A stretch of 64,000 bases of DNA from an uncultured Opitutia bacterium (GCA_913049555.1 CAJWYM010000001.1:52882-116881), one strand, 5' to 3'; numbered from the stretch's first letter, positions 28,307 to 48,551 are shown. The notes: generated by a model from the letters alone, not told the origin. Translations and numbers: made by a program.

Positions 28307-29023
28307 TAGAATTTCTTCAACGGATCGTTAAGTTTTTAAAATCTCATCAATTACCAGTAACAACTAGCAAGAGTGTGTATTCTAAACTTAAATTCATTTG
28401 CTTGAATTGGGTAAAAAGCACGTTTTAATGGGTGTAATTTATTCTTATAGAATAATATAAAAAAAGCCAGTATTTTTTAGTCCTATTTTAAAATAGGGAA
28501 GTTCACTCCTTTTTTTAATATTTCCAAAGGACTCAGGTTCTCCATTCCCAATCTTTATATAAAACTTATAATTTTGAAGGTTTTCTTATCAGCAGTAGTG
28601 ATTTCTCACAATAAGTTTTTATAAAGTCTTTTTATTTTAAATGAATACAGCAGTCTTAGTGATCGATTCTGTCGACTTCATCATGACTAATTGGACTTTA
28701 GATTTTACCAAAACGACAGAACCCTGAATCCTCCAAAAGGATGCAATAAAAAATAAGTTTTGAGCAAAAGATATTGAAGCGAAAAGAGTGATTAAATCCT
28801 GAAATAGAACTTTTGGTTCCGTGAAGATTTTCATAAATCATTGCAGTCGAATCCGTGAAGCTTGAGGTCAAAGTTTTCATGAGGGATCTGGGTTTATCAA
28901 ATTGCATGCCATTTGAGCGTATAAAGTAAACCCCACGCTCTTTTAGTTTTTTAAGACTTAAATTTTAGTTTCTACTTTAGATTGCATTTACAATTTCTAA
29001 AATCATTTGTAGATTCTTTCCCC

Positions 29024-30013
29024 ATGAGATTTTATCTTGAATTCCTAGTCAATTGTTCTATTCCGTTATTGTTTTCTTTTACTGTTGTCTCAGTGTTTGG
29101 CGATTCACTTCTATTTAAAAATGGGGATCGGATTTCAGGATCTTTAATCAATGAAACTCGGACCGAATATGTTTTTAAGACTGAATATGGAACCCTTCGT
29201 GTTCCTATGGATCAAGTTGATCTGGAGAAAGCCCCCAAGATTCAGTCAAAGCCGATTTTAAACTTAGTAGAGGGGGATAAGACCTCTTCGAAACTGAGCC
29301 ATCTGGATCGGTTGAAAATCAGAAAAGCAAAAATAAGGCAAATATTTCCAAATTCTTGGAAGGGAAGAATTTCAAGTAGTGTAGAATTTTTAGAGAGCGA
29401 AAACAGTCGTTTCGGATTTCAGCAAAAATTATCTACTTATAAAAAAATAGAAGCTCAACGCTACAATTTAAACGCCTACTATGCCTATTCTAAAGTAAGC
29501 CAAAAAGATGGGGTCTCAATCAAAACTCGTGATGAACATGGGGCAAACGGGGGACATGTTTGGGATTTTGGAGAGGGCTGGTTTTCTAATACAAGAATCA
29601 GTTATTTGAGAGATGAGCAAAGAGATATTCAATTTCAAGTTCAACCCACATCCGCATTGGGTTATCGGGTTTTTGATGATTCTGATTTAGCCCTATCTTT
29701 TAAAATTGGACCCTCTTGGCGATTCATAGATGCCTCTCAATTGGATACAAACCAAGTAAATTTAATCAATATCGGTCAAAATCTGATTTATAAATTCAAT
29801 GGACAAGTAAAATTTATCCAAAGCGTAGACTATTTTCGAAGCCCTGAGGATTCATCGGTCTCCAATACAATTTTTCGAGCTACTTTGGCTTCCAATCTTA
29901 CGGATTTACTAGATACAAGACTTGGCTATGTCTATGATCACAATAATATTGTAGGTAGAGCGATGCAAAAAAAACAAGGTCGCCTAACCCTGTCCTTCGG
30001 AATTCCATTTTAA
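29024..30013 (+). CDS. DUF481/YdiY-like outer-membrane beta-barrel protein
   Basis: ATG at 29024 preferred; LKNGDRISG-type N-domain, alternating beta-strand pattern, C-terminal LSFGIPF. Confidence 0.75.
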   Translation: MRFYLEFLVNCSIPLLFSFTVVSVFGDSLLFKNGDRISGSLINETRTEYVFKTEYGTLRVPMDQVDLEKAPKIQSKPILNLVEGDKTSSKLSHLDRLKIRKAKIRQIFPNSWKGRISSSVEFLESENSRFGFQQKLSTYKKIEAQRYNLNAYYAYSKVSQKDGVSIKTRDEHGANGGHVWDFGEGWFSNTRISYLRDEQRDIQFQVQPTSALGYRVFDDSDLALSFKIGPSWRFIDASQLDTNQVNLINIGQNLIYKFNGQVKFIQSVDYFRSPEDSSVSNTIFRATLASNLTDLLDTRLGYVYDHNNIVGRAMQKKQGRLTLSFGIPF

Positions 30014-30261: not shown

Positions 30262-31764
30262 ATGACTAGAATCTTTATCATTTGTCTCAGTATTATTTCT
30301 GCTGGCACAGCTTATATAACACTCACTCGTTCTGAAGATCTTTCTGGCACTCCGATTTTAACTTGGGTTACGGATCCAAATCCGGCCCGTTATGAGCAAA
30401 TTGATTTTTTTCATGATTGGTTGATTGCTCAAGGACATACCGATGAAAATGGGGATCCTATTGTTCGAATTCAATTAGAAACAGGGGGCGTGGACAACAA
30501 AAAGATCATCCATGGGGTTTCTGGAGTGGCTGGAGACATCTTGGATATGTACAATGAAGTGGATCAATTTAAAAAATTAGGCATCTTAGAAGATCTAACA
30601 GACTATGCTGATAGATACGGATTCGGTCCAGATCAAACCTATGATGCCATCAAAAACGACATTGTAATTGGAGGCAAACAGTTCGCTTTTCCATGCAACG
30701 TCACTTCCCATGCTTGCTGGATTAATATGGATGTGATGCAGGCTGCTGGGATTGATCAATTGCCAGAGTCTTGGACAGTAGAAGCATTTGAACGGATCGG
30801 TAAGAAATTTGTCCAGAATATGAACTCGAGCAATGAGGCACAAAATTATTTCTTTATGAACAATCCTGGTGATGATCAATTTGTTGGTTGGATCACGGTA
30901 TTGATGAGGTCCAAGGGAGGTTCGTTTTACAATGAGACGATGACTGAATGTATTCTCGATCAGGGACCTTTTGCAGAAATGATTGACTTAAACATCAAAT
31001 GGATTGAAGAAGATCGAATCTTTCCAAATGCTGCCGAGGCTTCCTCTTTTTCAGCTTCTGGTGGGTACGGAGGTGCCAAGATGTCTTTGTTTTTGGAAGG
31101 TAAATATGGGATGATTAATTTGGGACGCTGGCTCCTTGTTCGCATGAGAGAAATGGAGAATCCCCCCAAGGTTGCTGTCAGTCGATATCCTTATTTTGAT
31201 TATGAAAACACAACCATCGGATCGAGGTGCTCTTCAATTTACAAGGGGTCCAAGCATAAAGATTTAGCAGCTCTTTTTCTTGCATTTTTAGCCAGTGATA
31301 AATACAACAATCAGATCGTTGACTGTGCGGACGCGCTTCCACCCAATCCAAATTTTTGCTCCAGTCAAAGATTCCTAAGACCCAGCGAGTATCCCAACGA
31401 GTGGGGAGCCCACGGTGCTGCATTCAGAAGTGCAGATGAAGTTGCGATTCCAGATGCCAAGAGTTTATTTATATCGCAACAAATCTTAGGTCGAGAACTT
31501 AGAACTGCCTTTGAAAAGGTGCAAAGTAAATTATCAAACTCTGCAATTGCTTCTTTGCAGGCTGCAGAGGCAGTCAATGAAGAAATCAAACGCAATGTCA
31601 GTAACAGTCTCCGCTTGGAGAAAAAATTCAAGAACGCACTTGCTTTGCAAGCTAAAATTGACGCATTCAAAAAAGCCGGTAAAAAAATTCCTGTGGATTG
31701 GATCTCCAATCCATTTTTAAAGAAATATTACCGTTCTCTGGGAATGTTGGAAGAAACAAAATAG
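30262..31764 (+). CDS. Carbohydrate ABC transporter substrate-binding protein
   Basis: N-terminal anchor, WVTDPNPAR, GDILD, QFAFPCNV, FLEGKYGM; followed by two CUT1 permeases. Confidence 0.88.
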   Translation: MTRIFIICLSIISAGTAYITLTRSEDLSGTPILTWVTDPNPARYEQIDFFHDWLIAQGHTDENGDPIVRIQLETGGVDNKKIIHGVSGVAGDILDMYNEVDQFKKLGILEDLTDYADRYGFGPDQTYDAIKNDIVIGGKQFAFPCNVTSHACWINMDVMQAAGIDQLPESWTVEAFERIGKKFVQNMNSSNEAQNYFFMNNPGDDQFVGWITVLMRSKGGSFYNETMTECILDQGPFAEMIDLNIKWIEEDRIFPNAAEASSFSASGGYGGAKMSLFLEGKYGMINLGRWLLVRMREMENPPKVAVSRYPYFDYENTTIGSRCSSIYKGSKHKDLAALFLAFLASDKYNNQIVDCADALPPNPNFCSSQRFLRPSEYPNEWGAHGAAFRSADEVAIPDAKSLFISQQILGRELRTAFEKVQSKLSNSAIASLQAAEAVNEEIKRNVSNSLRLEKKFKNALALQAKIDAFKKAGKKIPVDWISNPFLKKYYRSLGMLEETK

Positions 31765-31776
31765 TTGAGGCACTCC

Positions 31777-33258
31777 ATGAACAAAAAAAGAAATCGAATC
31801 AATACCCTAAAGGGACTTTTGTTTCTTTCACCCAACATCATTGGATTTTCAATTTTCACTCTGTTTCCTTTGGGATTCAGTCTAATCATGGCATTCAGTA
31901 ACTGGAATTTGTCACAACACAATATGTTTACGGATGAGCCTCTTAAATGGGTTTTGTTACAAAATTTTAAAGATCTTTTAGGATCTGAGGACTTTTGGAG
32001 ATATTTAGGAAATACGCTCTTTTTTATGATCGGGATTCCAATTAGTATGGCAGGAAGCTTGGGCGCGGCTCTTCTTTTGAATCAAGATTTAAAGTCGCCC
32101 TCAAAGAGAGCGAGGTCTAAAGGGATTCTCTATGTGCTTCCCCTGATTGCCTTTTCTAGTTTGTTATTCTTGGGTTTCGGAATGTCAATAATGGTTCTTA
32201 TTGTCACGGGCATTTTTGGAGTTATTTATATAGGAGGAGTTTCTGGAGGTTCCACAGTCTATCGGACGATCTTTTACACCCCTAATTTTACAGCGGGTGT
32301 TGCCACTTTTATTCTTTGGAAAAAAATATACAACCCCCAAACTGGGCCCTTAACTACAATCACCCAACCCATCCTCGAAGGTGTGAATGCAGTGGTTTTA
32401 TTCCTTGGGAAAGACACAATCTATATTTTCATGTATGTAGTTGTGGTCCTGGCAATTGGAAGCCTTTATTGGGGATTGAATACTTTTTTAAAGTGGAGAT
32501 CGGAAAAAGATCTTGGATACATTGGCTTAATTATTGGAGTTTCTGCCCTGATTTTGCCAAGTTTTTTTGTTTTGCATTGGTTTTCTCATCCAATTGCTTC
32601 CCAAATCATGCAGATCAGTGTCATTGCTACAATTGTCTATTTTGTTTCTCAATTTATAGCAAAATCTTCTGATTGTATTTGCCATCCCGAAAAAGGAATG
32701 GGCAATGCGATTATGTTGGGTTTAGGAATCATGGCACTTCAATTTTTATTAATTGGATTGAGCAACGTGCTTTATAAATTACCGGAGATGTCACTCGTTG
32801 GGATTTCATCTCCAAGTTGGCTTACAGATTATCATTGGGCGAAGCCCTCTTTGATGTTTATGGGCTTTTGGGCTGCAATTGGGTCCAATTCTATGTTGCT
32901 ATATTTGGCTGCCTTATCGAATGTTTCTCCGGAACTTTCCGAGGCTGCAGATATTGATGGAGCCACTAAATTTCAGAAGTTTTGGAATGTAACTTGGCCT
33001 CAATTAGCACCTGTGACTTTTTTCATATTTATCATGGCTGTTATCAACGGAATGCAAGGAGGCTTTGAAGTAGCCAAGACTATGACAGGAGGTGGGCCCG
33101 CAGGCTCTACAACTACCTTGGAATATTTTATTTATGAGGAGGGCTTTGCTTCCGGAAGATTGGCCTTTGCATCTGCGATTTCTTGGATTCTTTTTGCAAT
33201 GATTTTCGCCCTAACCTTGTTCAACTGGAGATTTGGCAATCGCTACGTGAACGATTGA
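31777..33258 (+). CDS. Carbohydrate ABC permease (MalF/UgpA-like, with insertions)
   Basis: ATG at 31777 after GAGG; FLSPNIIGF, LQNF, LGNT, EAA loop ELSEAADIDGA. Confidence 0.9.
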   Translation: MNKKRNRINTLKGLLFLSPNIIGFSIFTLFPLGFSLIMAFSNWNLSQHNMFTDEPLKWVLLQNFKDLLGSEDFWRYLGNTLFFMIGIPISMAGSLGAALLLNQDLKSPSKRARSKGILYVLPLIAFSSLLFLGFGMSIMVLIVTGIFGVIYIGGVSGGSTVYRTIFYTPNFTAGVATFILWKKIYNPQTGPLTTITQPILEGVNAVVLFLGKDTIYIFMYVVVVLAIGSLYWGLNTFLKWRSEKDLGYIGLIIGVSALILPSFFVLHWFSHPIASQIMQISVIATIVYFVSQFIAKSSDCICHPEKGMGNAIMLGLGIMALQFLLIGLSNVLYKLPEMSLVGISSPSWLTDYHWAKPSLMFMGFWAAIGSNSMLLYLAALSNVSPELSEAADIDGATKFQKFWNVTWPQLAPVTFFIFIMAVINGMQGGFEVAKTMTGGGPAGSTTTLEYFIYEEGFASGRLAFASAISWILFAMIFALTLFNWRFGNRYVND

Positions 33259-33282
33259 TCTAAAAGGAGAAATTATTAGTGT

Positions 33283-34125
33283 ATGAATGCTGAAAATGTT
33301 GAGAAAAAAGTGGGATCTGGTTTTTATTTAAATCATACTTTACTGACCACAATTAGCTTATTGATGGCTTTGCCATTTTTATGGATGTTATTGACTAGCC
33401 TGAAGCCTTTATCAGAGGTTGGAGGTTCCCATTGGTGGCCAAAAGACTTTAAATTAGAAAATTATAAAGAGGTTTTCTCAATTGAAAATTTACGTTATGG
33501 ACGTTGGTACTTCAATAGTTTGTTTGTTTCTTTTTGCGTGACCTTTCTACAAGTTTTGACCAGTGCACTGGCTGCATTCGCTTTTAGTAGACTCGAATGG
33601 AAGTGGAGAGATGGACTCTTTTTGCTGTATTTGGGCACTATGATGGTTCCAGGATTGATTCTGATGATACCAAACTTTCAGATTATGATCAAACTAGGCC
33701 TGATGGATACTTATCTTGGTTTAATTATACCGGCTGCATTCAGTGCATTCGGCACCTTTTTACTCCGACAATTTATGATGGGAATTCCGAAATCATTGGA
33801 CGAAGCTGCGGAGATCGATGGGGCCTCTACTTGGCAGGTTTTTTGGCAGGTCATTTTACCTTTATCGAGGCCCGGTTTGATTACTTTAACAATTTTTACC
33901 TTTATGGGGAATTACAATAGCTTTTTCTGGCCAATCGTAATGTTGAAAAGTGCGGACAAGTACACCCTTCCAGTGGGATTGCTTTTTTTTGAGTCTTCTC
34001 AGGGTCAGCAAACCAATCTTCTAATGGCAGCGATTACAATGGCTGTTATTCCTATGGTAATTTTGTTTGTTTTGATGCAAAAGCATCTAGTAAAAGGGAT
34101 TCAACTTGGAGGAGTGAAAGGATAA
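33283..34125 (+). CDS. Carbohydrate ABC permease (MalG/UgpE-like)
   Basis: PFLWMLLTSLK, FLLRQFMMGIPKSLDEAAEIDGA, NSFFWP, GGVKG. Confidence 0.93.
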   Translation: MNAENVEKKVGSGFYLNHTLLTTISLLMALPFLWMLLTSLKPLSEVGGSHWWPKDFKLENYKEVFSIENLRYGRWYFNSLFVSFCVTFLQVLTSALAAFAFSRLEWKWRDGLFLLYLGTMMVPGLILMIPNFQIMIKLGLMDTYLGLIIPAAFSAFGTFLLRQFMMGIPKSLDEAAEIDGASTWQVFWQVILPLSRPGLITLTIFTFMGNYNSFFWPIVMLKSADKYTLPVGLLFFESSQGQQTNLLMAAITMAVIPMVILFVLMQKHLVKGIQLGGVKG

Positions 34126-34290
34126 TTTAAGAGGAGCCTTTTTTTTTGGAAAATTAAAATAAATCTCTAAATGATCTCACTGGTTGCAACTTCATCTGAG
34201 GCTTGGATTTTTGAAGAAATGATTATAAAAGCACAGATTAATAGATTCGACAAAAAAATGGTTTATGATGTCCTAATTGCAATCGAAAAC

Positions 34291-34336
34291 TTGAAAAAAC
34301 AAAAACTCATGATATTGTAAGAAAAATGTAAGTTAT
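34291..34336 (+). promoter_or_regulatory. Promoter with a second copy of the TGTAAG-N5-TGTAAG direct repeat
   Basis: TTGAAA at 34291; extended -10 TGaTATTGT at 34310-34318; TGTAAG at 34316 and 34327, followed by TTAT. Confidence 0.6.
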
Positions 34337-34353
34337 CCATCCAATTTTTAATT

Positions 34354-35835
34354 ATGCACTCCTTCTATTTTTTACTCTTTTTTACCTTATTATTTACTGC
34401 CGCTTTTTCGAAGGATAAGAATTTTTACTCTGAAAAAAAGAAGATGATTTCCTTCGATAAGAATGAATTGCTAAAAATGGAACTTCCCATTTTAGTTGAA
34501 AAGTACAAATCATGGGGTCCTCTCGTTCAGCAACAGGCCAAGAGTTTTCTTGAGAAGAAATACCATGAGCAAATTAGGATCCATCCTTCTCTGGCTAGAC
34601 AGATTGAAAAGAAGCACAAGGAGCTTGTAGCTATACAATCCAAAAATGAAGAGATCTTTAGTTTTATGCTTGGAGTCCAACAGCCTCATGCTACCAATCA
34701 GAAATGGGAAATTCATAAGGGAGTGCCCTCTCAATTAGCAGCTCATCAAATTTTAATGGAAATGGGATCTGATATTATAAAATTGGCTCCAGAAAACAGA
34801 CACTTGAAAAAGCAGGGCTTTGAAACTGCCAATTTAAATACCCTCACAGATCGTTTGAAACACCCATTGTATAAGCAAATATTGGATATGCCTTACCGGG
34901 TGGCTTTCTTTTGGGCGCATGGTTCTGACATCACTTTTGATAAAAAAATGAGTTTCGATCAAAAAAGAAAGCTTTATGATGAATTCTATGAACTCACCCA
35001 ATATCTTCTAAAAACATACAACAGATCCGGAAAAGTATTTATGGTTGGCAATTGGGAGGGAGATTGGTTGCTGACGAGTCAGGAAGGAGATTTGAACCAA
35101 GACGCAGATTTAGTGCGCATAGAAAACATGATTGACTGGTTCAATATACGCTCGAAAGCAATCGAACAGGCCAAAATAGAAACCCATTATGAGGATGTTC
35201 GCGTTCATTTGTACTGTGAGTTGAATCATGTATCCCTTGTAGCCAATAAAGGATATAAAAGAATTGTGAATAGCGTCCTCCCATACACTTATGTGGATTA
35301 CGTATCGATCTCTAGTTATGACATGCAGGGTATTGGAAATTGGAAATCAGATCCTACAGAATCCGCTTTGAGGGAATTTGCTTTGCCTATGTTTGACTTT
35401 GTAGAGGAACATTTGCCCCCTAGAGACATCCCAGGAAAAAGAGTATTTACAGGAGAGGTCGGCTTCACAATCCATCACATCAATCACCTATTCGATCTTC
35501 ATGGTTTGAAGGCTGAGCGAGAACAGGCGAGGCTTTCATTGATCAATGCGAAAGTAAATCTGGAGTGGGGAATGCCATTTTGGATTGTTTGGGCGCTGCA
35601 TAATAACGAATTGCAAAAAAACGGAGAATTTCGAGGTTGGGGAATTTATGATCAAGTTCATGATCGGAAAAGAGTTTTATTTCAAGAAATGGTTTCTTTT
35701 TATAAATGGGCAAAAGATTTTAAAGCCGGATTTGAAAAGAAAAACAAAAAGTCACTCACCCCAAATCTTTTTAGAGAACACGCAGTCCAACAACTGGATT
35801 TGCAAATCAGTAAATATCAAATTGAAAACAAATAG
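34354..35835 (+). CDS. Secreted protein with a putative glycoside-hydrolase-like TIM barrel (unclassified, GNWEGDW motif)
   Basis: Signal peptide; motifs FMVGNWEGDW, VDYVSISSYD, VFTGEVGF and WALHNNE in clan GH-A-like order; paralogous to the C-terminal half of 36579-39413. Confidence 0.6.
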   Translation: MHSFYFLLFFTLLFTAAFSKDKNFYSEKKKMISFDKNELLKMELPILVEKYKSWGPLVQQQAKSFLEKKYHEQIRIHPSLARQIEKKHKELVAIQSKNEEIFSFMLGVQQPHATNQKWEIHKGVPSQLAAHQILMEMGSDIIKLAPENRHLKKQGFETANLNTLTDRLKHPLYKQILDMPYRVAFFWAHGSDITFDKKMSFDQKRKLYDEFYELTQYLLKTYNRSGKVFMVGNWEGDWLLTSQEGDLNQDADLVRIENMIDWFNIRSKAIEQAKIETHYEDVRVHLYCELNHVSLVANKGYKRIVNSVLPYTYVDYVSISSYDMQGIGNWKSDPTESALREFALPMFDFVEEHLPPRDIPGKRVFTGEVGFTIHHINHLFDLHGLKAEREQARLSLINAKVNLEWGMPFWIVWALHNNELQKNGEFRGWGIYDQVHDRKRVLFQEMVSFYKWAKDFKAGFEKKNKKSLTPNLFREHAVQQLDLQISKYQIENK

Positions 35836-35846
35836 AGTCGATTCCA

Positions 35847-36575
35847 ATGAAAACCTTTTTATACTGCATCGCTTGCTTCATTTTCTCTTTTTATTCCAGT
35901 CTAAACGCTGAATCCCAAAATCCTGATCGCTATGTGTTCGGATCAAAAGTATTTTCGTACATTGTCTCTTCTGAACAACAAATTGAAGATCCATTTAAAG
36001 TAAGGATCGACTATAATATCCCTCCCAACCAGAAAGTTCAAAAGATTACGGTAGTGATCAAAAAAGCGGGTTCCATTTTGGGCAAAGTTTCATTTTCTGC
36101 TCAAGGATTTGGATCCAAGGATATCACGTTTGATAAGATCCAGGGAATGGATGATTTCAATTTGGGGGGTTATGTTGGAAAAGATTTTCAAAGCAGAAGT
36201 TATTATTTCAATCCATTCCCTTTTAACTTTGCACTGTTGAAAAGAAAACCTAAAGAGAATCCGAAAAATGAATTTGGTGGATTTTACAGTATCAAGCTTT
36301 CTCAACCACTTTCTTTTGAGAAAATGGATTTAATTGAGGTTCAAAATGAAAAATTAGAGAATGCGATTCCCTTGAGAATTTTTGTAAAAAATAGTTTAGG
36401 TTCTATGTTTGCCTCTTCAATAGCGACAATAAAAGAGGAGGGAAGATTGTTTTTTTATATGAAAATGCCTAAAAAATCTTCTCAATCTTACCATCTTGTC
36501 TCTTATTTAGGCACAGATTTCTCTACCAAAATGGATGGGGTGGCACCGATTGATTTGGAGTTGGTTGATATGTAA
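35847..36575 (+). CDS. Secreted beta-rich hypothetical protein with an internal duplication
   Basis: Signal peptide; two similar halves ending FNLGGYVGKDFQSR and YHLVSYLGTDFSTK. Confidence 0.6.
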   Translation: MKTFLYCIACFIFSFYSSLNAESQNPDRYVFGSKVFSYIVSSEQQIEDPFKVRIDYNIPPNQKVQKITVVIKKAGSILGKVSFSAQGFGSKDITFDKIQGMDDFNLGGYVGKDFQSRSYYFNPFPFNFALLKRKPKENPKNEFGGFYSIKLSQPLSFEKMDLIEVQNEKLENAIPLRIFVKNSLGSMFASSIATIKEEGRLFFYMKMPKKSSQSYHLVSYLGTDFSTKMDGVAPIDLELVDM

Positions 36576-36578
36576 AAC

Positions 36579-39413
36579 ATGAGTAAGCGATTAATCAAAT
36601 CTTTGAATTTCTTTTTTTTAGGATTTTTCTTGGCTTGTTCCGACTCGACAGAAGTTACCTCCCCTGAAAAAGAAACCACTTTAGAAGTTCAAAAAACTAC
36701 AGAGATATTACCGGTTTCAGAGGAAACTCCTGAATTAGAAGAAAACTTCTTTCTGGAGGCAAATGGAGCTTTCGAGCAAATACTCTCTGGTATTGGGATC
36801 TCTTCAGTAGAGTCTTTCAAATTTGCTTTTGCAAAGTTAGAGCTAACGCATCAAAAGCTTTTGATTGAGAAAGTATTCAATGCACAGGAGCGATATTCTA
36901 TTTTGGGGGATCCTGTAGAATCCGTTCTTAAAGAGCTCATTTTATGGGCAATTCATTCCATAGATACCTTCGATGTTTATGAGCACTTAGAATTTATATT
37001 GAGGCTTGAAAAATGCATGGAACTCCTCCCTCAAAACGAATCAGTGGGTGACTATTTTTTAGGTTGGTTGCCAGTATTGCATCAGGAAGATCAAAAAAAC
37101 ATATTGAATAGTTTTTTAGAAAAATATGCACAATCGATTCGATTGAAAAGCCCCAATGAGAAGATTTATTCCAAGCTTTTCGATAAAATTCCGCAATCCA
37201 TTGGATGGGAATTGGATCCACAAAGCCAAAAAGATAAAATTCAGGAGCTGTTTTTCATTATCAACCAAATGACCAATAAAAGAATCACTCAATTGGACTT
37301 AGATAATTTTGGTTTACGAGATAAGATATTAATCGGTCACGAAATTTATAAAAGGCATCAAATCTCAGTCAATCAGAATTTTAGCGACTCCTATTTTCTT
37401 CACCAAACCTACAAATATTTAAAACAAACGGATCCATTATTAAATAAAATATTGGATGATTATTCTTTCTCAAAATGGAACCATGATTGGCTAGAAAATT
37501 CTATCAGTGTCTTTTTAGAGACTCAAAAATTTGGGTATGATGAAAAATGCCTCTTTTTTTATGAAATAAGGATGCTGAGTCAGGATCCTTTTTTAGAGAA
37601 TTTTTTAATCAGAAAAATAGAAGAGAATTTACCACAACAAAATTCAAAGCTTTATGATTGGCTTCTAATTTACAATCATTTTTTAGACAAAAAAATAGTT
37701 GAGAAGTCATTAGAATCTATCCTCATAAAGCCCGCGCAATTATTTTCTAATGGGTTGAAAACCATGCAAATGAATACTTTGAGCCAAGACGCTCTCTCAC
37801 TCTTGACTAAACTGTATCATTTATCGCCTGATAAATATCGTGATTATTTAAATAAAAAGATAATCGAAAAATACAACGAGATTAAGAGGCATTCTACCCA
37901 CAGTGCGAATGATTTAAAGATTCTCTACCACTCCTTAAATTCTGTGGAGGAAACTACAATTCAAAAGTCCCCATCCATTCAATCCAAATCGAATTCATCC
38001 AAAGCATTGGATTCCTTGTATCAATACCTAGAAAATAAGAATAAAAATTCCCTAGGTGCAAAATTATTGGATAAATTCAAAGATGCCTCCGATTCTGATA
38101 AACGGGAAATCAAAAAAACGCTCAAAGATGCTTATTACAAAAAAGTAATAGACGATCCATTGGAGGCTAGAATCCTCAGAGATTTATATATGAAAATGGT
38201 AGAAATATACTCAGAGAATCCACCCATCTTGAGCTCTATTATTGGAATCCAACAACCCCATGCAGATCTCAGACAAGATCGAAAATATTTTGATTCTGTT
38301 CCCTCTCAACTAAAAGCAGTTCAAGATCAATTGAATCTTCAAGCCGATACAATGAAATTGGCTATGCATAAAAAACATTTGATGCGTCAAAATCTCAACA
38401 TTGAGGGATACGATTCATTGAAAGACCTTGCAAGGCACCCGCTTTACAAAGAGATCCTTGATCAAGACTACCGAGTTTTGTTTTTTTGGGCGCATGGTCT
38501 GAATGGAAAGATAAAATTTCGGAACGAGTTTAAAGATTCCCAAAAAGAAGAGCTCTACAATGAATTTTATGAATTCACTAAGCATTTGTTAGTTGAATAC
38601 AACCAATCTGGTAAAACCTTTATGATCGGGAACTGGGAGGGAGATTGGATGCTCGCTGAGATCGGGAATTTAAAAACAGATGCAAGCCCGGAGGCAATTC
38701 AAAACATGATCGATTGGTTCAATATAAGAGCCAAAGCCATTGCTGACGCTAAAGAAGAAATCAAACATTCCAATGTAAGGATTCATTTATATGCAGAACT
38801 GAATCATGTCAGCCTTGTTATGAGAGAAGGCTTGAGCCGAATCGTCAATTCAGTCCTCCCTCATATATTAGTCGATTATGTTTCGATCTCCAGCTATGAT
38901 ATGCAAGGCTTACTAAAAATGGCTCGCTGCGAAAATGTATCAGAAGTGAAGGCGCTTATTTTCCCTCAGCTAGATTATGTCGAATCCATGTTGCCCCCTG
39001 CAGATATTCAAGGAAAACGGGTGTTCATCGGTGAGATCGGGTATCCCATACATTCTATTATGAAACGCTTTAAGATAGACCGTCCCAAAGCAGAGATAAA
39101 ACAGGCTCAAATGGCATTTATGAATGCACAAGCCAATATAGAGTGGGGAGTGCTTTTTTGGCAATGGTGGGCTTTGTATGACAACGAGCAGATAGATGAG
39201 GAAGAACCGGACGCTTATGTTGGCTTTGGTTTGATCGATCAAGTCAGCGGTAAAGCTCGGTTGAATTATCACTACTTCAGTGAATACTATAAATGGTCTG
39301 AATCGTATCTTTCTGACAATAAGAATGTACAATCTGTAAAAGATTTCCAAAAAAAATCTGTCAAAGAGATTGAAAAATGGGTCAAGAAGTTGAAAAAAGA
39401 ATTCGATAATTAG
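36579..39413 (+). CDS. Large lipoprotein with a helical N-terminal region and a C-terminal GH-like TIM barrel
   Basis: Lipobox FLAC; from about 38232 it aligns with the 34354 protein (GIQQPHA, FFWAHG, GNWEGDW, ELNHVSLV, DYVSISSYDMQG, GEIGY). Confidence 0.65.
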   Translation: MSKRLIKSLNFFFLGFFLACSDSTEVTSPEKETTLEVQKTTEILPVSEETPELEENFFLEANGAFEQILSGIGISSVESFKFAFAKLELTHQKLLIEKVFNAQERYSILGDPVESVLKELILWAIHSIDTFDVYEHLEFILRLEKCMELLPQNESVGDYFLGWLPVLHQEDQKNILNSFLEKYAQSIRLKSPNEKIYSKLFDKIPQSIGWELDPQSQKDKIQELFFIINQMTNKRITQLDLDNFGLRDKILIGHEIYKRHQISVNQNFSDSYFLHQTYKYLKQTDPLLNKILDDYSFSKWNHDWLENSISVFLETQKFGYDEKCLFFYEIRMLSQDPFLENFLIRKIEENLPQQNSKLYDWLLIYNHFLDKKIVEKSLESILIKPAQLFSNGLKTMQMNTLSQDALSLLTKLYHLSPDKYRDYLNKKIIEKYNEIKRHSTHSANDLKILYHSLNSVEETTIQKSPSIQSKSNSSKALDSLYQYLENKNKNSLGAKLLDKFKDASDSDKREIKKTLKDAYYKKVIDDPLEARILRDLYMKMVEIYSENPPILSSIIGIQQPHADLRQDRKYFDSVPSQLKAVQDQLNLQADTMKLAMHKKHLMRQNLNIEGYDSLKDLARHPLYKEILDQDYRVLFFWAHGLNGKIKFRNEFKDSQKEELYNEFYEFTKHLLVEYNQSGKTFMIGNWEGDWMLAEIGNLKTDASPEAIQNMIDWFNIRAKAIADAKEEIKHSNVRIHLYAELNHVSLVMREGLSRIVNSVLPHILVDYVSISSYDMQGLLKMARCENVSEVKALIFPQLDYVESMLPPADIQGKRVFIGEIGYPIHSIMKRFKIDRPKAEIKQAQMAFMNAQANIEWGVLFWQWWALYDNEQIDEEEPDAYVGFGLIDQVSGKARLNYHYFSEYYKWSESYLSDNKNVQSVKDFQKKSVKEIEKWVKKLKKEFDN

Positions 39414-39937: not shown

Positions 39938-42900
39938 ATGAAATTACTTGTAAATTTACATCTAATAATTGGAGTTTTGGCTCTGATAAACTTGTCGGCT
40001 ATGGAAAGTAAAGTTGTGATTCGGGAAAACAATTCTTTTCTGATGGCAATGGGAAAAGGATCCCGTTTAGAAATCCATGCTGCAGACAAAAAAAAAGCAA
40101 GCTGGTTGCAATTAGCAAATGGTTATACAGCAAGTCCCAATGACACCGAAATTACATTAGACAATGAAGGGAAAAAAACGCACTGGGAAATAGGAGATCA
40201 ATTTGCAATTGCTACCTCTTATTACCATGAGAGAAGAACGGAAGTGAGACGTATCCAGTCGATCGTAGATTCGGGAAGATTGACAAAAATCACATTTAAA
40301 AAACCATTAGATTACACGCATTACGGGGAGATTGAAAATTATCGTATGGTCAAAAAGGAGGGTGAAGAATTGACTTGGGATATTGACATGCGAGCTGAGG
40401 TTGGTTTGTTGACTCGAAACATTGTAATTCAGGGGCATCCTGACCGTCGAAAAGATGAATTCGGGGGTCACGTAATGGTTATGATGGGTGGGAAAATGCA
40501 TATTGCTGGAGCTGAACTCAAGTTTATGGGGCAAGATGGGTTTCTCGGTAGATATCCTTTGCATTGGCATCTTTCTGGGGACGTAAAGGGACAATATATT
40601 ACAAATAATTCCATCCATAATAGTTTTCATAAAGGAATCACGCTTCATGGTACTCAAAACGCATGGGTTGAGAATAATGTAGTTTTCGAAACGCAGGGCC
40701 ATGGCATTTTTCTTGAAGATGGCACTGAGGAAAACAATGTAATCAAAAAAAATCTAGTTTTTAACACCAAAAATGCTAAAACGCCTGTGATTGCATCGGA
40801 TAAATTTGCAATCTCTAGTTACTGGTCCAACAACCCGAACAACCATTTTATTGGCAACCATGCCGCTGGCTCGAGAGGCAGTGGATTTTGGATTGCTGGA
40901 AATAGGAAACCAATAGCAGGAGCGGAAAAGATGCCTCAATACAAAAGCTTAGTTCCTAGGCAAAGACCTTTTGGATTGTTTCAAGGAAACACTGCACACA
41001 GTAATTTAAAAACAAGTTCTGGGACTTTGGGAAGAGAGATGACCGGCATCGGATTGAATATAGGTCAAGAAATTCAAGAAGATAAGATTAAAAAACTGGA
41101 TCACGACAACTATGCAGAACTTCACCAACCCGTCCCTGGGCAAAGCAACGACATCTATAATTTATATGTATCTGATTTCACGTCTTACATGAATGAAGAC
41201 GTGGGTATTTTTGCTCGAACTTTTGGAGGGCACTTAAAAAATATAAAATTGGCTGACAATGGTTTGGCAATCATGACTACAGGAGGACAGCTTATTGAAG
41301 AGAGTGTTGTGATTGGACATAGTAAAAACAGCAATATTCACAAACGAAAATTCGAAACCATTCGAGAAAGTAGATATGGGCTAGGTCTTTACACCGACAG
41401 CGTGGTGGTTGACAAAACTTTGTATGCCAACTTTAAACCAGAGTGGACAAACAGCGAAGGTCAGAAGATTCGCGATTCTATTCTGACTCAAAGGACGGGT
41501 GCCAATAATTCTACTCTTCATGTTATGCAAGATATCCAGATTAAAAACACCCATCCTAAAAATTATTTTATGTCTAATGGTAAGAATGGAAATCGTAGGA
41601 GTGATGAATTGTCAGTAGCCTCTGTTGGTTTTGTGGACGGTGGAGGTGCTTTTACTGGAATTCCCGGTGCCATGGTAACCGCTCGTTTGAGACCAGCGGA
41701 AGAGGGAATCGAAGATCAATCTTCTAGAAGTGATGTTGAGCTTCTAACCAATGGTTTTCAAAGAGCCCCATACATAGATTTGAAGGATTCTACATTACAG
41801 CGAGAGGAAGAACTCGATGCGCATATCAACAAACATCAAATCGCAGGACATTTTAAACTGCAGAAGGGGCATTCTGGTTCTTTTAAAACCATCACTCGAT
41901 CGGATGGGGAAATGATCAGAACAGATCTGGTCGGAAATGGAACCACTTCAGATCAGTTGGTTGTATTTGCCTACAAAGATTCCAGTTATGGTTTAGAAAA
42001 TAAGGTCCGCTATACATTTGAATGGGACAATCAAATCGAAAATGATCTAGAATTCATCATAAGGGATTTTGCAAAAGGACAACAAGTGTACTTCATTCTC
42101 AAGAAGGTCCCTCGATCTACAACAATTCAAGGATCTGATCCTGCAAGTAGTCTTGACGAATTGATCGAAAGGTCCCCTCTTAAGGGAAGTTGCCATTTTT
42201 TTAAAGGGTCGGACCTGCATCTATTGTTGTCAGCAACGGATGAATCCTATCATCCCCAACTGAATGACTTAGCTACAATCAATCATCGAGTCTTTTGGGA
42301 TGGAGTGCGAATTCGACCAAATGGAACAGGGAGAGACAAATTGGAGGGTGACCATCAAATCAGTCATAAGATGTTTCGGCCCTTCACAAGAGAATTGGAG
42401 AAAGATTTTGGAGATCAGGTAAGTTGGAGGAAGAACCCAATCAAATTTGTACAATCCAAGATCTCTGAGAAAGAAATGCTGGAGCAGGTTGAGAAGTTAG
42501 ACCCAGCTCATTCTGGTTCAACTTCTGAAACCATATCAAAAACACAATCATTTCCTCTTTGGTCGGATCCAAATTCATGGGCAGGGAAAATACCTGCCTC
42601 GGATTCTATTGTAATTATACGCAATGGTGAAAAAGTTACGCTAGATAAGAATACTAGGGTTCAGGGAATTATTATTGAGGGGTCGGGGTCGGTTCTTAAT
42701 ATAATGGACCAAAAAGGCGCTCGTTTGAAACTAACATCTGACTTTGTTTTGGTCTTAAACGGAGGGCTTTTTCAAGCTGGAACTGAAACCAATCTCTTAG
42801 ACACAGATTTTACCTTAGAATTATCTGGAGAGGACCCAGAATTCATCTTACCAGTAACAGATTTACTCAAAGGTCAGACCAACCACAAAATTTCTTACAT

Positions 42901-42940
42901 CGGTTCAGAAAAAAAGCCAATTTTACAATCAAAAATTTAG
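39938..42940 (+). CDS. Secreted CEMIP/TMEM2/fibrocystin-like beta-helix protein with G8 domain
   Basis: RAEVGLLTRNIVIQG, FGGHVM, MGQ...GRYPLHWH, ITLHGT, GHGIFLEDGTE; G8-type WSDPNSW...GTE...LSG segment at the C-terminus. Confidence 0.85.
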   Translation: MKLLVNLHLIIGVLALINLSAMESKVVIRENNSFLMAMGKGSRLEIHAADKKKASWLQLANGYTASPNDTEITLDNEGKKTHWEIGDQFAIATSYYHERRTEVRRIQSIVDSGRLTKITFKKPLDYTHYGEIENYRMVKKEGEELTWDIDMRAEVGLLTRNIVIQGHPDRRKDEFGGHVMVMMGGKMHIAGAELKFMGQDGFLGRYPLHWHLSGDVKGQYITNNSIHNSFHKGITLHGTQNAWVENNVVFETQGHGIFLEDGTEENNVIKKNLVFNTKNAKTPVIASDKFAISSYWSNNPNNHFIGNHAAGSRGSGFWIAGNRKPIAGAEKMPQYKSLVPRQRPFGLFQGNTAHSNLKTSSGTLGREMTGIGLNIGQEIQEDKIKKLDHDNYAELHQPVPGQSNDIYNLYVSDFTSYMNEDVGIFARTFGGHLKNIKLADNGLAIMTTGGQLIEESVVIGHSKNSNIHKRKFETIRESRYGLGLYTDSVVVDKTLYANFKPEWTNSEGQKIRDSILTQRTGANNSTLHVMQDIQIKNTHPKNYFMSNGKNGNRRSDELSVASVGFVDGGGAFTGIPGAMVTARLRPAEEGIEDQSSRSDVELLTNGFQRAPYIDLKDSTLQREEELDAHINKHQIAGHFKLQKGHSGSFKTITRSDGEMIRTDLVGNGTTSDQLVVFAYKDSSYGLENKVRYTFEWDNQIENDLEFIIRDFAKGQQVYFILKKVPRSTTIQGSDPASSLDELIERSPLKGSCHFFKGSDLHLLLSATDESYHPQLNDLATINHRVFWDGVRIRPNGTGRDKLEGDHQISHKMFRPFTRELEKDFGDQVSWRKNPIKFVQSKISEKEMLEQVEKLDPAHSGSTSETISKTQSFPLWSDPNSWAGKIPASDSIVIIRNGEKVTLDKNTRVQGIIIEGSGSVLNIMDQKGARLKLTSDFVLVLNGGLFQAGTETNLLDTDFTLELSGEDPEFILPVTDLLKGQTNHKISYIGSEKKPILQSKI

Positions 42941-43243: not shown

Positions 43244-44020
43244 ATGAGAGTTTCAGATCATATAGTTTCTAAAAGAAGACGAGATTTAGCGATCTTAATA
43301 AGACAAAATCGCTACATGCCGATTTCTGAGATATGCAAGCATTTTGCCATCTCTGAAGCGACTGCAAGACGTGACTTGAGAGCGTTGGAAGAGGGTAGTG
43401 AAATATTGCGCACCTTTGGCGGTGCTCTTGGTGATTTTAATGAAGATTTCGAAACTTTCTCGGAGAGAAAAGAGCAATCGTCCACAGCAAAACAGTGGAT
43501 CGCTAAAAAGGCCGTCCAGCAAATTCATCCAGGAATGGTTTGTTTTCTTGATGCTGGTAGCACACTTTATGCGATTGCAGAGGAATTATCCAAGAGTGGC
43601 AAAAAAGATATCAAGGTGATGACAAATAATTTAGCTGTTGCTGAGTTACTTTCTCCAGTCAAGGGCATCTATGTATCTCTTACAGGAGGCAAACTGGCCT
43701 CCAAGCAAGCGGTCCTTCTGGGTGAAGTTGCAGAGAGAACCTTGGCTCAATGCACATTCGATCTTTCATTTATGAGTGCTAAAAGTGCCAATGAGTCAGG
43801 CATTTGGAACAATCAAGAAGACGTTGTGTTGCTGCAAAAGCTTTTAATCGATCGAAGCGCAAAGCCTATATTTTGTTTGGACAAAAGTAAAATTGGGAGA
43901 GATGACAATCGATTTGTGGCTAATTGGCATAAGATATACGCCTTTCTTACAGATGCTCCTAAAACTTTACTGTTAGAGAACAACATCAAATTGCAGCCTT
44001 CTAAGCATTGGATGGTCTAG
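43244..44020 (+). CDS. DeoR/GlpR-family transcriptional regulator
   Basis: ISEATARRDLRALE...RTFGGA HTH; FLDAGST and MTNNL in the sugar-phosphate sensor domain. Confidence 0.93.
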   Translation: MRVSDHIVSKRRRDLAILIRQNRYMPISEICKHFAISEATARRDLRALEEGSEILRTFGGALGDFNEDFETFSERKEQSSTAKQWIAKKAVQQIHPGMVCFLDAGSTLYAIAEELSKSGKKDIKVMTNNLAVAELLSPVKGIYVSLTGGKLASKQAVLLGEVAERTLAQCTFDLSFMSAKSANESGIWNNQEDVVLLQKLLIDRSAKPIFCLDKSKIGRDDNRFVANWHKIYAFLTDAPKTLLLENNIKLQPSKHWMV

Positions 44021-44036
44021 GGGAGCGTTGATTATT

Positions 44037-44798
44037 ATGAGTGAAAAATTAAAGAAGCAACTGATACAACTGTCCCATGAGTTGGGTCGCGAGGAAAGGG
44101 CGTTGGCAATTCTTGGAGAGGGCAATACTTCTGTCAAATTGGAGAATGGTAATTTCCTGGTCAAAGCAAGCGGCAGTTGTTTGGGCACCTTGTCTGATGA
44201 TGGTATTACAGAATGCAATGTTTCAAATATTTTGGATCTTTTTAACCAGTCGGAGCTTTCTGATTTAGAGGTAGACAAAGCTCTCTTAGATTCTCGGGTA
44301 GTTGCTGAATCTAAAAAACCATCTGTGGAGGCGACTTTTCATGGATATTTGTTGTCCTTACCGGGTGTCAAATTTGTGGGTCATACCCATCCCATCCATG
44401 TAAACAAGTTGTTATGCAGTGGCAACGGAAGAGACTTTGCAGAGCGTAGAATCTTTCCGGATCAAATTGTTTGTTGCGGAGCGGAGTCGGTATTTGTTCC
44501 TTACGTAGATCCAGGATTAGAATTAGCAAAAGCGATAAAAGAGCAAGTAGAGTTTTTTATCGGACGCACTTCCCGAGCTCCCGTTACGATTTTAATAGAA
44601 AATCATGGGCTTATTTGTATCGGCAAAACATGGCAAGGAGTTTTAGCCGCTTCTCTAATGGCCAATAAATCTGCCGAAATACTTGCAGGCGCTCTAGCTT
44701 GTGGAAATGGATCTGCTAACTATCTTGCGAATGATCAAGTGGATCGGATTGCAGGAAGACCAGATGAGCACTACAGGCAAAAAGTGCTCAATCTTTAA
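44037..44798 (+). CDS. Class II aldolase/adducin-family protein (candidate fuculose-1-phosphate aldolase)
   Basis: GEGNTS, VKASG, KPSVEATFH, HTHP and NHG zinc-binding motifs. Confidence 0.85.
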   Translation: MSEKLKKQLIQLSHELGREERALAILGEGNTSVKLENGNFLVKASGSCLGTLSDDGITECNVSNILDLFNQSELSDLEVDKALLDSRVVAESKKPSVEATFHGYLLSLPGVKFVGHTHPIHVNKLLCSGNGRDFAERRIFPDQIVCCGAESVFVPYVDPGLELAKAIKEQVEFFIGRTSRAPVTILIENHGLICIGKTWQGVLAASLMANKSAEILAGALACGNGSANYLANDQVDRIAGRPDEHYRQKVLNL

Positions 44799-44842
44799 TT
44801 CAAATATTTATCTTTAATTCAAAAAACTAAATCGAATAAAAA

Positions 44843-47032: not shown

Positions 47033-47048
47033 TCAAAAATTGGAATCG

Positions 47049-48542
47049 ATGATTCAAAAAAAGGTATACTTAGCAGTAGACTTAGGCGCTGAAAGTGGAA
47101 GAGTTCTTGCGGGAGAGTTTGACGGCTCCCGTTTAGAGCTTGTCCCGGTGAATACATTTCCTAATGGGCCCATCAATCTTGCTGGGTCCATGCATTGGAA
47201 TATTACGGGTTTATACAAAGGAATCTTAGAGGGTTTGGCATTGGCTCAATCTAAGTATGGGGATGCTCTGGTTTCAATAGGTGTGGATAGCTGGGGTGTT
47301 GATTATGGGTTTTTGGATAAAAAGGGACATTTGTTAGGAGTTCCTTACCACTACCGAGATTCAAGAACTGATGGGATGCTTTCAGAAGTTGAAAAAATAA
47401 TTTCTGCTCAAGAAATGTATCATTCAACTGGAATTCAATCCCTATTCTTCAATACATTATACCAATTGGTAGCTGAATTGAATGAAGATTCCGTTTTATT
47501 GAAAAATGCGGATTCTTTATTGTTCATTCCGGATTTGATCAATTTCTGGTTGACCGGGAAAAGAAAAACAGAGATCACGATCGCAAGCACCGGTCAGTTA
47601 CTGAATCAGGAGACTCGTGATTGGGACAAGGGCTTATTAGATAAACTCAGGATCCCAACTGCTATTTTTGAATCTCTAGTTAGTCCCGGTGATTTGATTG
47701 GTTTTGTAACTGGGGGCGCTCGACGGGAAATAAAGTGCGGGAACGATTTAAAAGTCTTTGCAATCGGTTCCCATGACACAGCTTCTGCAATTGCAGGTAT
47801 TCCTGTAGTCGATTCAGAGGATTTTGCATACCTGAGCTCTGGAACTTGGTCTTTAATGGGAGTCGAACTGAAAGAAGCGATTTTGAGCGAGGAAAGCAAT
47901 CGGTTGGGTTTTACGAATGAACTCGGGATTGATCAAACCGTTAGGTATCTAAAAAACATCAGTGGGCTTTGGATTGTTCAAGAATGTCGAAGGTATTGGG
48001 ACTCTCATGGAGACATTTATGATTACAATCAATTGACTTCGATGGCTTCTAATGGAAACGCTTTTGAGGCCATTATCGATGTGGACGATCCAATCTTTGC
48101 AACGATGGGTGATATGCCCAATAAAATTGCCGATTACTGCACGAAAACAGGGCAAAAAGTTCCTGTGTCCAAGAATGAAACAATCCGGATCGCACTTGAG
48201 GGTTTGGCCCTAAAATATCGAGAAGTTTTAGAAAACTTGCGATCTATGACAGGTAAAAAGTTAGAAACCCTGTATATAGTGGGTGGAGGTACTCAAAATA
48301 AATTATTAAACCAGATGGCAGCAAATGCAACTTCTTGTAAAGTAATTGCAGGACCAGTCCAAGCTACCTCTGTCGGTAATATTATTACTCAAATGATGGG
48401 CAATGGTGAAATTCACTCCTTGAATGAAGCGCGTCAGTTGATCCAAGATTCCCTCGAACCTGTAGAATATTTCCCTGAAGACTTGGCAAATTGGGAAGAT
48501 GCCTATAAAAGATACTCCTCATTAAAAAATTCTAATAACTAA
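47049..48542 (+). CDS. rhaB: FGGY sugar kinase (rhamnulokinase/fuculokinase type)
   Basis: ATG at 47049 preferred; AVDLGAESGR, GVDSWGVDY, YRDSRT, SHDTASA, SSGTWSLMG, GFTNE, LKNISGLW. Confidence 0.88.
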   Translation: MIQKKVYLAVDLGAESGRVLAGEFDGSRLELVPVNTFPNGPINLAGSMHWNITGLYKGILEGLALAQSKYGDALVSIGVDSWGVDYGFLDKKGHLLGVPYHYRDSRTDGMLSEVEKIISAQEMYHSTGIQSLFFNTLYQLVAELNEDSVLLKNADSLLFIPDLINFWLTGKRKTEITIASTGQLLNQETRDWDKGLLDKLRIPTAIFESLVSPGDLIGFVTGGARREIKCGNDLKVFAIGSHDTASAIAGIPVVDSEDFAYLSSGTWSLMGVELKEAILSEESNRLGFTNELGIDQTVRYLKNISGLWIVQECRRYWDSHGDIYDYNQLTSMASNGNAFEAIIDVDDPIFATMGDMPNKIADYCTKTGQKVPVSKNETIRIALEGLALKYREVLENLRSMTGKKLETLYIVGGGTQNKLLNQMAANATSCKVIAGPVQATSVGNIITQMMGNGEIHSLNEARQLIQDSLEPVEYFPEDLANWEDAYKRYSSLKNSNN

Positions 48543-48551
48543 GCTCAATTT

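Follow-up and report, generated by a model that had tools for sequence, protein, structure and literature searches.

What are the two related proteins encoded between positions 34354 and 39413 of this stretch of DNA, and do they belong to a glycosidase family that already has a name? The stretch, called the window below, is 64,000 nucleotides (nt) from an uncultured Opitutia bacterium (GCA_913049555.1 CAJWYM010000001.1:52882-116881), numbered from its first letter. An earlier note, made from the sequence alone, had pointed to two paralogs sharing a GNWEGDW motif and had proposed them as a candidate new glycoside hydrolase (GH) family of clan GH-A. We propose that P0001 (493 amino acids, aa; 34354..35835, + strand) and the C-terminal half of P0002 (944 aa; 36579..39413, + strand) are old paralogs within a large, unnamed family of exported proteins with the (beta/alpha)8 architecture of clan GH-A, probably acting by a retaining mechanism, and we give this reading a probability of about 70%.

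Two old paralogs of a large family

BLASTP aligned P0001 with P0002 at 195 identities over 451 positions (43%, with 63% positives and an E value of 2e-119), the alignment spanning residues 47 to 491 of P0001 (nt 34492-35826) and residues 496 to 941 of P0002 (nt 38064-39401, + strand). The shared motifs listed earlier all lie within it, from G[VI]QQPHA, VPSQL, HPLYK.ILD, FFWAHG, FM[VI]GNWEGDW, and NMIDWFNIR to ELNHVSLV, RIVNSVLP, VDYVSISSYDMQG, KRVF.GE.G, and WAL..NE. The claimed paralogy is confirmed, as is the presence of both candidate catalytic Glu residues in both copies: E235 and E368 in P0001 (codons 35056-35058 and 35455..35457) and their equivalents in the P0001/P0002 alignment, E687 and E819 in P0002 (codons 38637..38639 and 39033..39035), all on the + strand and checked codon by codon. 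Two details had to be revised. The homology had been placed at 34660-35835 and 38232-39413, and these segments do align, but it begins about 170 nt further upstream; the second copy is indeed a paralog but not a whole protein, since it forms the C-terminal half (450 aa) of a 944-aa open reading frame (ORF; 36579-39413).

In a quick maximum-likelihood tree of 40 family domains, with support from the Shimodaira-Hasegawa-like approximate likelihood ratio test (SH-aLRT), P0001 was sister to the metagenomic protein P0004 (SH-aLRT 99), and the C-terminal domain of P0002 clustered with P0010, P0007, and P0008 (SH-aLRT 91), three proteins also bearing N-terminal extensions. The two copies thus sit in separate groups of the tree, and the duplication is therefore older than the split from the other organisms. 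A search of the host genome found two family copies, both of them in the window.

The family reaches far beyond this genome. A word-indexed search recovered 78 relatives, whose sources include Lentisphaera, Kiritimatiellales, Opitutales, Puniceicoccaceae, Pirellulaceae, Carboxylicivirga, Draconibacterium, and Sphingomonadaceae, and an exhaustive profile search found 2,002 representatives of clusters at 50% identity with an E value of ≤1e-3, among which 1,463 scored ≤1e-10 and 841 scored ≤1e-30. Moreover, the pattern G[NH]WEGDW[LM] matched 146 stretches in contigs from one genome per species, and 137 of these encode relatives. The distribution is patchy, with 7 of 151 sampled genomes of the window's phylum matching at E ≤ 1e-10, the host genome included. 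Long members are fused to GH2, CE2/GDSL esterase, Fn3, or ricin lectin domains, to autotransporter repeats, or to type IX secretion system (T9SS) tails. Tandem copies are frequent among 80 related loci, at least two being present in 37 loci and at least three in 28. A single 782-aa protein, P0150, itself contains two complete family domains in tandem (residues 24-436 and 428-782).

A family without a name in the databases

The earlier statement that these proteins cannot be assigned to a named GH family was borne out: sequence or profile searches of Pfam, NCBIfam, and the PDB gave no family name. Pfam returned nothing above noise for P0001 and P0002, with PF01229 (GH39) absent at E ≤ 1, NCBIfam nothing relevant for either protein, and phmmer with P0001 against all PDB chain sequences no match at E ≤ 10. 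The profile of a 50-sequence family alignment (A1) matched two PDB sequences alone, both spurious and helical (E values of 0.6 and 1). When the 50 members of A1 were scanned with Pfam at E ≤ 0.1, PF00150 (GH5), PF01229, and PF16317 (GH99) were unmatched, and stray weak matches arose to GH25 (0.015, in 2 members) and GH53 (0.029, in 1 member). The ESM Atlas clusters of the family share no Pfam 38.1 family. Named relatives are mostly called "hypothetical protein", the exceptions being a UniRef "Lipoprotein", one fusion named after its other domain, and P0046, which UniRef names "Glycoside hydrolase family 5 domain-containing protein".

In the literature, we found no paper on the WEGDW motif or on the member P0030 (LNTAR_13612 / WP_007277159 / A6DGX4 / EDM28857), and a search on GH190-195 and GH196-201 brought nothing further of relevance. 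Altogether, no confident match to a characterised family, an outcome that would have told against novelty, was found in Pfam, NCBIfam, the PDB sequences, or the literature searched; the family lies outside every family tested in these databases and is, as far as its sequences indicate, a good candidate for a new GH family.

Two further families were considered and set aside. GH168 endo-fucanases have their catalytic residues on strands 4 (Asp) and 6 (Glu), and three crystal structures of them are reported (PMC12534559); strand 6 of the present family holds D315, S318, S320, and Y322 and no Glu, and the PDB profile search found no related chain. GH185 corresponds to DUF4838 (PMC10570127), and Pfam did not find DUF4838 in P0001 or P0002. 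The available part of a 2026 Nature paper on fucoidan names no new family (PMC13668718).

A predicted barrel with clan GH-A neighbours

The predicted fold is that of a TIM barrel, as the earlier note had expected. An AlphaFold2 (AF2) model of P0001, built with the A1 alignment, shows an eight-stranded (beta/alpha)8 barrel with a predicted local distance difference test score (pLDDT) of 93.3 and a predicted template modelling score (pTM) of 0.90. The strands, as assigned by DSSP, lie at residues 106-109, 141-144, 183-187, 228-232, 283-290, 316-319, 364-369, and 410-413, with helices in between. Along the protein, a signal-peptide-like N terminus is followed by a helical lead-in (about residues 36-94) and then by the (beta/alpha)8 catalytic domain (about 100-465); a helix (470-492) closes the chain.

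Two structure searches with this model led to the same clan. Foldseek against the PDB gave 197 matches at E ≤ 1e-3, and the 28 matches listed were all members of GH5, GH164, GH39, GH2, GH1, or GH30, at 9 to 15% identity. The best were GH5 7bob (1.6e-7), GH164 6t7g/7omi (about 3e-7), and GH39 PslG 4zn2/5bx9 (3.5e-7), followed among those listed by GH2 glucuronidases, GH5_4, GH1, and GH30. VIA-align compared the model with 48,161 representative chains, and its best 50 rows all belong to clan GH-A, with Z scores from 19.6 to 16.9. GH39 5jvk (Z 19.6), GH5 7bob (19.5), GH1 6ier (19.5), and GH164 6t5o (19.4) lead these rows, and GH2, GH53, GH158, GH42, GH10, GH35, and GH157 appear lower, down to Z 16.9. 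The 50 neighbours so listed share 7 to 15% identity with P0001, and their rows are effectively tied; therefore, the fold is GH-A-like and no solved family is singled out.

Conserved residues and proposed mechanism

In clan GH-A (the 4/7 superfamily), the acid/base follows strand 4 and the nucleophile sits at the end of strand 7, and the canonical set comprises an Arg on strand 2, a His/Asn on strand 3, N-E on strand 4, H-x-Y on strand 6, E on strand 7, and W on strand 8. We counted the residues of the family in 212 domains aligned to the family hidden Markov model, in P0001 numbering. W234, E235, D237, R266, D315, S318, S320, and W413 are each kept in 211 of the 212 domains and E289 and E368 in 210; K143 is kept in 198, with gaps in the other 14, and position 233 is His in 113 domains and Asn in 92. 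The strand-6 D-x-x-S-x-x-x-Y motif, which had also been put forward, is present as D315 and S318 (211/212 each) with Y322 in 195 domains and Trp in its place in 16. E368 lies within strand 7 (DSSP residues 364-369) and occupies the clan GH-A nucleophile position at the end of that strand. The same conservation extends to the tandem copies: across the 80 loci, long 800-aa forms included, E235, D237, and E289 are kept in all 142 genomic copies and E368 and W413 in 141, the exception being a short form with gaps at both positions.

Comparison with GH5 and GH39 alignments, built from Pfam-defined genes of related genomes and compared by hhalign, placed these residues further. With the 212-domain query, the GH39 profile aligned over 326 columns across the barrel (probability of 16.8%, E value of 0.0015), and in this weak alignment E368 falls on a Glu shared by all 12 of the GH39 sequences, D315-Y-V-S318-I-S320-S-Y322 on D-F-x-S-x-H-x-Y, and W413 on a Trp. 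The same query against GH5 (probability of 8.3%) set E368 on the Glu of G-E-F-G and S320/Y322 on the H/Y of GH5, and a first comparison with a 10-sequence GH5 profile (probability of 5.8%) covered strands 2 and 3 alone. The GH39 and GH5 alignments are weak, yet they accord with each other and with where the strands lie.

Of the solved families, GH39 (Bacteroides cellulosilyticus 5jvk; Pseudomonas aeruginosa PslG 4zn2/5bx9) resembles the family in its (beta/alpha)8 barrel, in the top VIA-align row (5jvk; root mean square deviation of 3.7 over 287 aligned residues), and in the best profile alignment, where the strand-7 Glu, the strand-6 D..S.[SH].Y, and the strand-8 W are matched. It differs in an identity of 10 to 12%, in PF01229 being unmatched, and in the low hhalign probability. 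Where GH39 has W-N-E-P, the family has [HN]-W-E-G-D-W, and its strand 6 carries Ser instead of His; D237, E289, N291, and R266 are extra invariant residues, the lead-in at the N terminus is helical, and the C terminus forms a helix where GH39 has a beta-sandwich. The host genome, which is 95% complete, gave no GH39 match. GH5 (exo-beta-1,4-mannosidase Op5Man5, 7bob; GH5_4; GH5_18) supplies the top Foldseek match, which also reaches Z 19.5 in VIA-align, and its G-E-F-G aligns with the G-E-x-G strand-7 motif of the family. However, PF00150 is unmatched in 50 of 50 members, the hhalign probabilities are 5.8 to 8.3%, and the family lacks N-E-P. The GH164 beta-mannosidase Bs164 of Bacteroides salyersiae (6t5o/6t7g) gives the longest VIA-align alignment (321 residues), with a Foldseek E value of about 3e-7 and Z 19.4, and the GH130 and mannosidase-type GH2 neighbours of the family hint likewise at beta-mannosides; against this stand 8 to 12% identity, PDB sequence and profile searches that were unmatched, and a Z score tied with those of many GH-A families.

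Thus, the clan GH-A reading of the earlier note finds support in the barrel model, in the GH-A structural neighbours, in the near-invariant Glu pair, and in the position of E368 on the nucleophile column of GH39 and GH5. The most likely mechanism would be the classical retaining one, hydrolysing an equatorial (beta-D-type) glycosidic bond by double displacement; E368 (G-E-x-G, end of strand 7) would then act as the nucleophile and E235, just after strand 4, as the acid/base. E235 belongs to E235-G236-D237 (codons 35056..35064, + strand), within the [HN]-W-E-G-D-W loop. S320-x-Y322 would stand where strand 6 usually has H-x-Y, and the strand-8 platform would be W413. D237, E289, N291, D315, R266, and K143 are invariants specific to the family and probably serve to read the substrate.

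Gene neighbourhoods and candidate substrate

In the window, one strand (+) carries the genes for an ATP-binding cassette (ABC) importer, P0001, a 242-aa protein (orf242), and P0002 as a run (30262-39413). The solute-binding protein comes first in this same-strand cluster (500 aa; 30262..31764; Pfam SBP_bac_1, E value of 2.1e-14), followed by ABC permease 1 (497 aa; 31765..33258; BPD_transp_1) and ABC permease 2 (280 aa; 33283..34125; BPD_transp_1, E value of 3e-24). Gaps of 229 nt separate permease 2 from P0001, 12 nt P0001 from orf242, and 4 nt orf242 from P0002. The order solute-binding protein, permease, permease, family gene is repeated in a Verrucomicrobia locus (L084) and a Pontiellaceae locus (L073). 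In both, homologues of the solute-binding protein lie upstream of family members, permease 1 shares 39 to 41% identity with the permeases that lie upstream of the family gene, and permease 2 is 59% identical to the permease immediately before the family member. Permease 1 is unusually long, its transporter domain being confined to residues 264-483 of 497, and its homologue reaches about 810 aa in two Planctomycetota loci (L033 7014-9431; L038 9278-11707).

To see what accompanies the family elsewhere, 835 ORFs from the 80 related loci were clustered and the cluster representatives annotated. The family itself accounts for 151 proteins in 80/80 loci. Sulfatases are next (123 proteins in 50 loci), then SusC (36 proteins in 36 loci), SusD (33 in 33), hybrid two-component sensors (HTCS; 33 in 32), GH130 (19 in 19), mannosidase/glucosaminidase-type GH2, often fused to an FAD-oxidoreductase and an SASA esterase (17 in 17), and SSF transporters (14 in 14). 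SusC and SusD occur together in 33 of the loci, and 26 combine an HTCS and SusC with a sulfatase and two or more family copies, e.g., in Carboxylicivirga (L048), Hyunsoonleella (L052), and Polaribacter (L079). Among 99 further close neighbours, GH127 (3), GH5 (3), and GH2 (3) lead, with GH95, GH106, and GH115 once each; GH29 occurs in 3 related loci, and GH92 is absent among the families shown for neighbours of the 80 loci.

A conserved Bacteroidota polysaccharide utilization locus (PUL) emerges from the latter three genomes (L048 4468-20268; L052 3539-20267; L079 1629-20649), with the gene order HTCS, family genes, SusC, SusD, sulfatases. Its family genes are two of about 400 aa followed by a long form of about 800 aa, to which Polaribacter adds a form of 1264 aa; the long forms have a central family domain and about 300 aa of unannotated N-terminal sequence. 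The family is the sole glycosidase-like component of this PUL.

These neighbourhoods point to an exported enzyme for a complex, usually sulfated glycan, with a recurring beta-mannoside theme that rests on the general functions of GH130 and GH2 enzymes. The host genome itself (3.10 Mb, 102 contigs) has 118 PF00884 sulfatase matches, which is very dense for its size. One copy would be soluble and exported and the other lipid-anchored, in a same-strand cluster with an ABC oligosaccharide importer, and both would probably break down a complex glycan, outside the cell or in the periplasm, to fragments that this importer takes up. Judging from the gene neighbourhoods elsewhere, the substrate may be a sulfated glycan, possibly one containing beta-mannose. 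We regard the family as a probable beta-glycanase or beta-glycosidase of the retaining kind, directed at a sulfated glycan, and its acid/base loop as a variant one.

Export and expression

The earlier note had described one copy as secreted and the other as lipid-anchored. The lipid anchor is supported by the predicted lipobox of P0002 (F-L-A-C20, Cys20 at 36636-36638), and the secretion of P0001 depends on its start codon. From the ATG at 34354, P0001 has a hydrophobic, signal-peptide-like N terminus; the public gene call (P0003, 463 aa) begins at the alternative start Met31 (34444) and is without the signal. The longer form is favoured because of the N termini of the family (a hydrophobic N terminus in 59 and a lipobox in 10 of P0001-P0080, by a crude rule), a consensus promoter-like site at 34291-34318, found in a scan that overall was not enriched over shuffles, and a contig from an RNA (metatranscriptome) library that covers 34362-34707. 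Moreover, the family copies directly after the ABC permeases in L084 and L073 open with signal or lipoprotein sequences. Such N termini indicate that the enzymes act outside the cytoplasm, upstream of import, and P0001 and P0002 would be exported by the corresponding routes.

Contigs from four RNA libraries, representing at most three samples from three studies, matched the region at ≥95% identity. Parts of P0001 and of P0002 were matched in all four runs and parts of orf242 in one, and parts of the solute-binding protein and permease genes were matched as well; gaps in cover and depth are not interpretable in these data. A 9.2-kb stretch is nearly identical in 13 metagenome runs from seawater or marine samples, each of which contains half or more of the words sampled from it, and the host is a recurrent seawater bacterium. 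The named relatives of its RuvB, 69 to 72% identical, belong to Verrucomicrobiota, Opitutales, Opitutus, and Coraliomargarita.

Weighing the reading against its alternatives

Several observations weigh against a classical clan GH-A enzyme for a sulfated glycan. E235 lies three residues beyond the DSSP end of strand 4 (228-232), its context is [HN]-W-E instead of the usual N-E of GH-A, its column in the GH39 alignment immediately precedes that of the W-N-E-P Glu, and the GH5 alignment at 8.3% gaps or misplaces the strand-4 region that includes it. The profile alignments are themselves weak (16.8%, 8.3%, and 5.8%), and the three further invariant carboxylates D237, E289, and D315 make other catalytic pairs possible. 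Regarding the substrate, sulfatase, GH130, and GH2 are all missing from 24 of the 80 loci, one sulfatase alone lies within 12 kb of the family genes in the host, and the 95% complete host genome gives no match to GH130 or GH29. Finally, the RNA-library contigs are weak evidence of expression because such libraries can contain DNA.

The points on E235 bear on the most probable of the alternatives, in our view still an unlikely one, namely, that the family has the same fold with a catalytic machinery other than the classical pair on strands 4 and 7. E235/D237 could work as in substrate-assisted hexosaminidases, a catalytic role could fall to E289, at the end of strand 5, or the proteins could be transglycosylases or act on amino or charged sugars. 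GH18, with D-x-E on strand 4, and GH20, with D-E, are such substrate-assisted hexosaminidases. E235, D237, E289, and D315 are each kept in at least 210 of the 212 domains, E235 is outside the canonical N-E and one column off in the GH39 alignment, and the GH2 partners bear an exo-beta-D-glucosaminidase immunoglobulin-like (Ig) domain, all of which would fit such a machinery. However, E368 is equally invariant and aligned with the GH-A nucleophile, and no GH18, GH20, or GH84 appears among the 50 VIA-align rows or the Foldseek matches listed. We thus retain the E235/E368 pair as the preferred reading.

That the family already stands in CAZy, either as a recent family without a Pfam model or structure or as a divergent GH5 subfamily, appears rather improbable. 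The UniRef name of P0046 fits this view, as does a 2026 preprint that founds clan GH-A-like families from PUL proteins without a known function (10.64898/2026.05.19.726164). On the other side, Pfam (50 members, E ≤ 0.1), NCBIfam, the PDB, and the Atlas clusters name no family for it, and no paper on P0030 or the WEGDW motif was found. That preprint states that the predicted structures of GH_New1, a beta-agarase family, align well with GH140 and with PDB 4N0R (10.64898/2026.05.19.726164), and GH140 and 4N0R are missing from the Foldseek and VIA-align rows listed and from the profile matches, GH_New1 having been compared by description.

It is very unlikely that the proteins are non-catalytic glycan binders or another class of enzyme on a glycosidase-like barrel. 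Catalytically dead GH-like binders do exist in PULs, which counts for this view, but both Glu and about ten other residues are near-invariant in the 212 domains and in all tandem copies, which argues for an active site under selection and not for the pattern of a binder.

To our knowledge, clan GH-A enzymes cleave equatorial and not alpha-D-mannosidic bonds, a point against the last and least probable alternative, that the family is GH195 or a close relative of it. GH195 is described as a new family from marine Flavobacteriia, distantly related to GH99 and without a solved structure, whose endo alpha-1,3-mannanase acts on C6-sulfated diatom mannan and accompanies sulfatases in the PULs of Polaribacter (PMC13063451). 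The present family likewise lies beside sulfatases in one Polaribacter PUL (L079), but PF16317 is unmatched at E ≤ 1 in the host and in the L079, L048, and L052 genomes and at E ≤ 0.1 in the 50 members, the structural neighbours listed include no GH99, the families shown for the gene neighbours do not include GH92, and GH195 was compared by description.

Implications

About 2,000 clusters (50% identity) of this family are without a name in Pfam, NCBIfam, and the PDB. The family stands in three or four copies in a conserved, sulfatase-rich PUL of marine Bacteroidota and recurs behind ABC importers in bacteria of the Planctomycetota-Verrucomicrobiota-Chlamydiota (PVC) group. A bolder extension, which we put forward as doubtful though conceivable, is that the family is the main depolymerase of an unidentified sulfated glycan, with a variant GH-A site that includes the three extra invariant carboxylates. 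If so, loci with three or four active-looking paralogs and sulfatases, often with GH130 or GH2, would mark an uncharted polysaccharide degradation pathway in marine Flavobacteriia, Marinilabiliales, Verrucomicrobiota, Kiritimatiellota, Lentisphaerota, and Planctomycetota that is missing from maps of the marine carbon cycle. Assignment of a substrate would found a CAZy family, would make thousands of metagenomic "hypothetical proteins" readable, and would probably reveal a sulfated glycan whose turnover has so far been unaccounted for. Since neither the fold nor the likely mechanism departs from the classical ones, the family does not amount to a new kind of biology.

Other features of the locus

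Between the paralogs, orf242 (242 aa; 35847..36575, + strand) looks exported, with a signal-like N terminus. A Pfam search gave it no family, its Atlas feature scores reach at most 0.82, and its structure matches are weak and of an Ig/MG2-like beta-sandwich type (Atlas template modelling scores of 0.34 to 0.43); it may be an accessory binding protein. In P0002, residues 21 to 495 (nt 36639-38063, + strand) form an orphan region predicted to be all helical. In the one near-length homology search made, residues 21 to 500 matched the protein itself alone, and a single-sequence AF2 model of the N-terminal region was all helical with a pLDDT of 47, too poor for a fold search.

Downstream, 525 nt beyond P0002, a secreted-looking 1000-aa protein combines a CEMIP-type beta-helix (PF24606, E value of 5e-57) with a C-terminal G8 domain (39938-42940, + strand). 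A catabolic operon of the 6-deoxyhexose (fucose/rhamnose) type begins 3.8 kb downstream (43244-50342, + strand) and contains a DeoR regulator, a class II aldolase, a fusion of an aldolase with a short-chain dehydrogenase/reductase (SDR), an FGGY kinase, whose gene overlaps the preceding one by 38 nt, and an L-fucose isomerase. The L-fucose isomerase operon is present though the host genome, at 95% completeness, gives no match to a GH29 alpha-L-fucosidase. The fucose operon, the CEMIP/G8 gene, orf242, and the N-terminal domain of P0002 have no counterparts at the 80 related loci and were therefore left out of our proposal for the substrate.

Just upstream of the solute-binding protein gene lies a DUF481 gene of the outer-membrane beta-barrel type (28982-30013, + strand), which also has no counterpart at related loci. 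Elsewhere in the window, the - strand carries a GH2 gene truncated by the window start (3-1550), a GDP-mannose 4,6-dehydratase with an adjacent epimerase/reductase of the GDP-fucose synthesis type (7335-9317), a sulfatase gene (20606-22117), and a gene for a NamZ-type exo-beta-N-acetylmuramidase (54107-55369).

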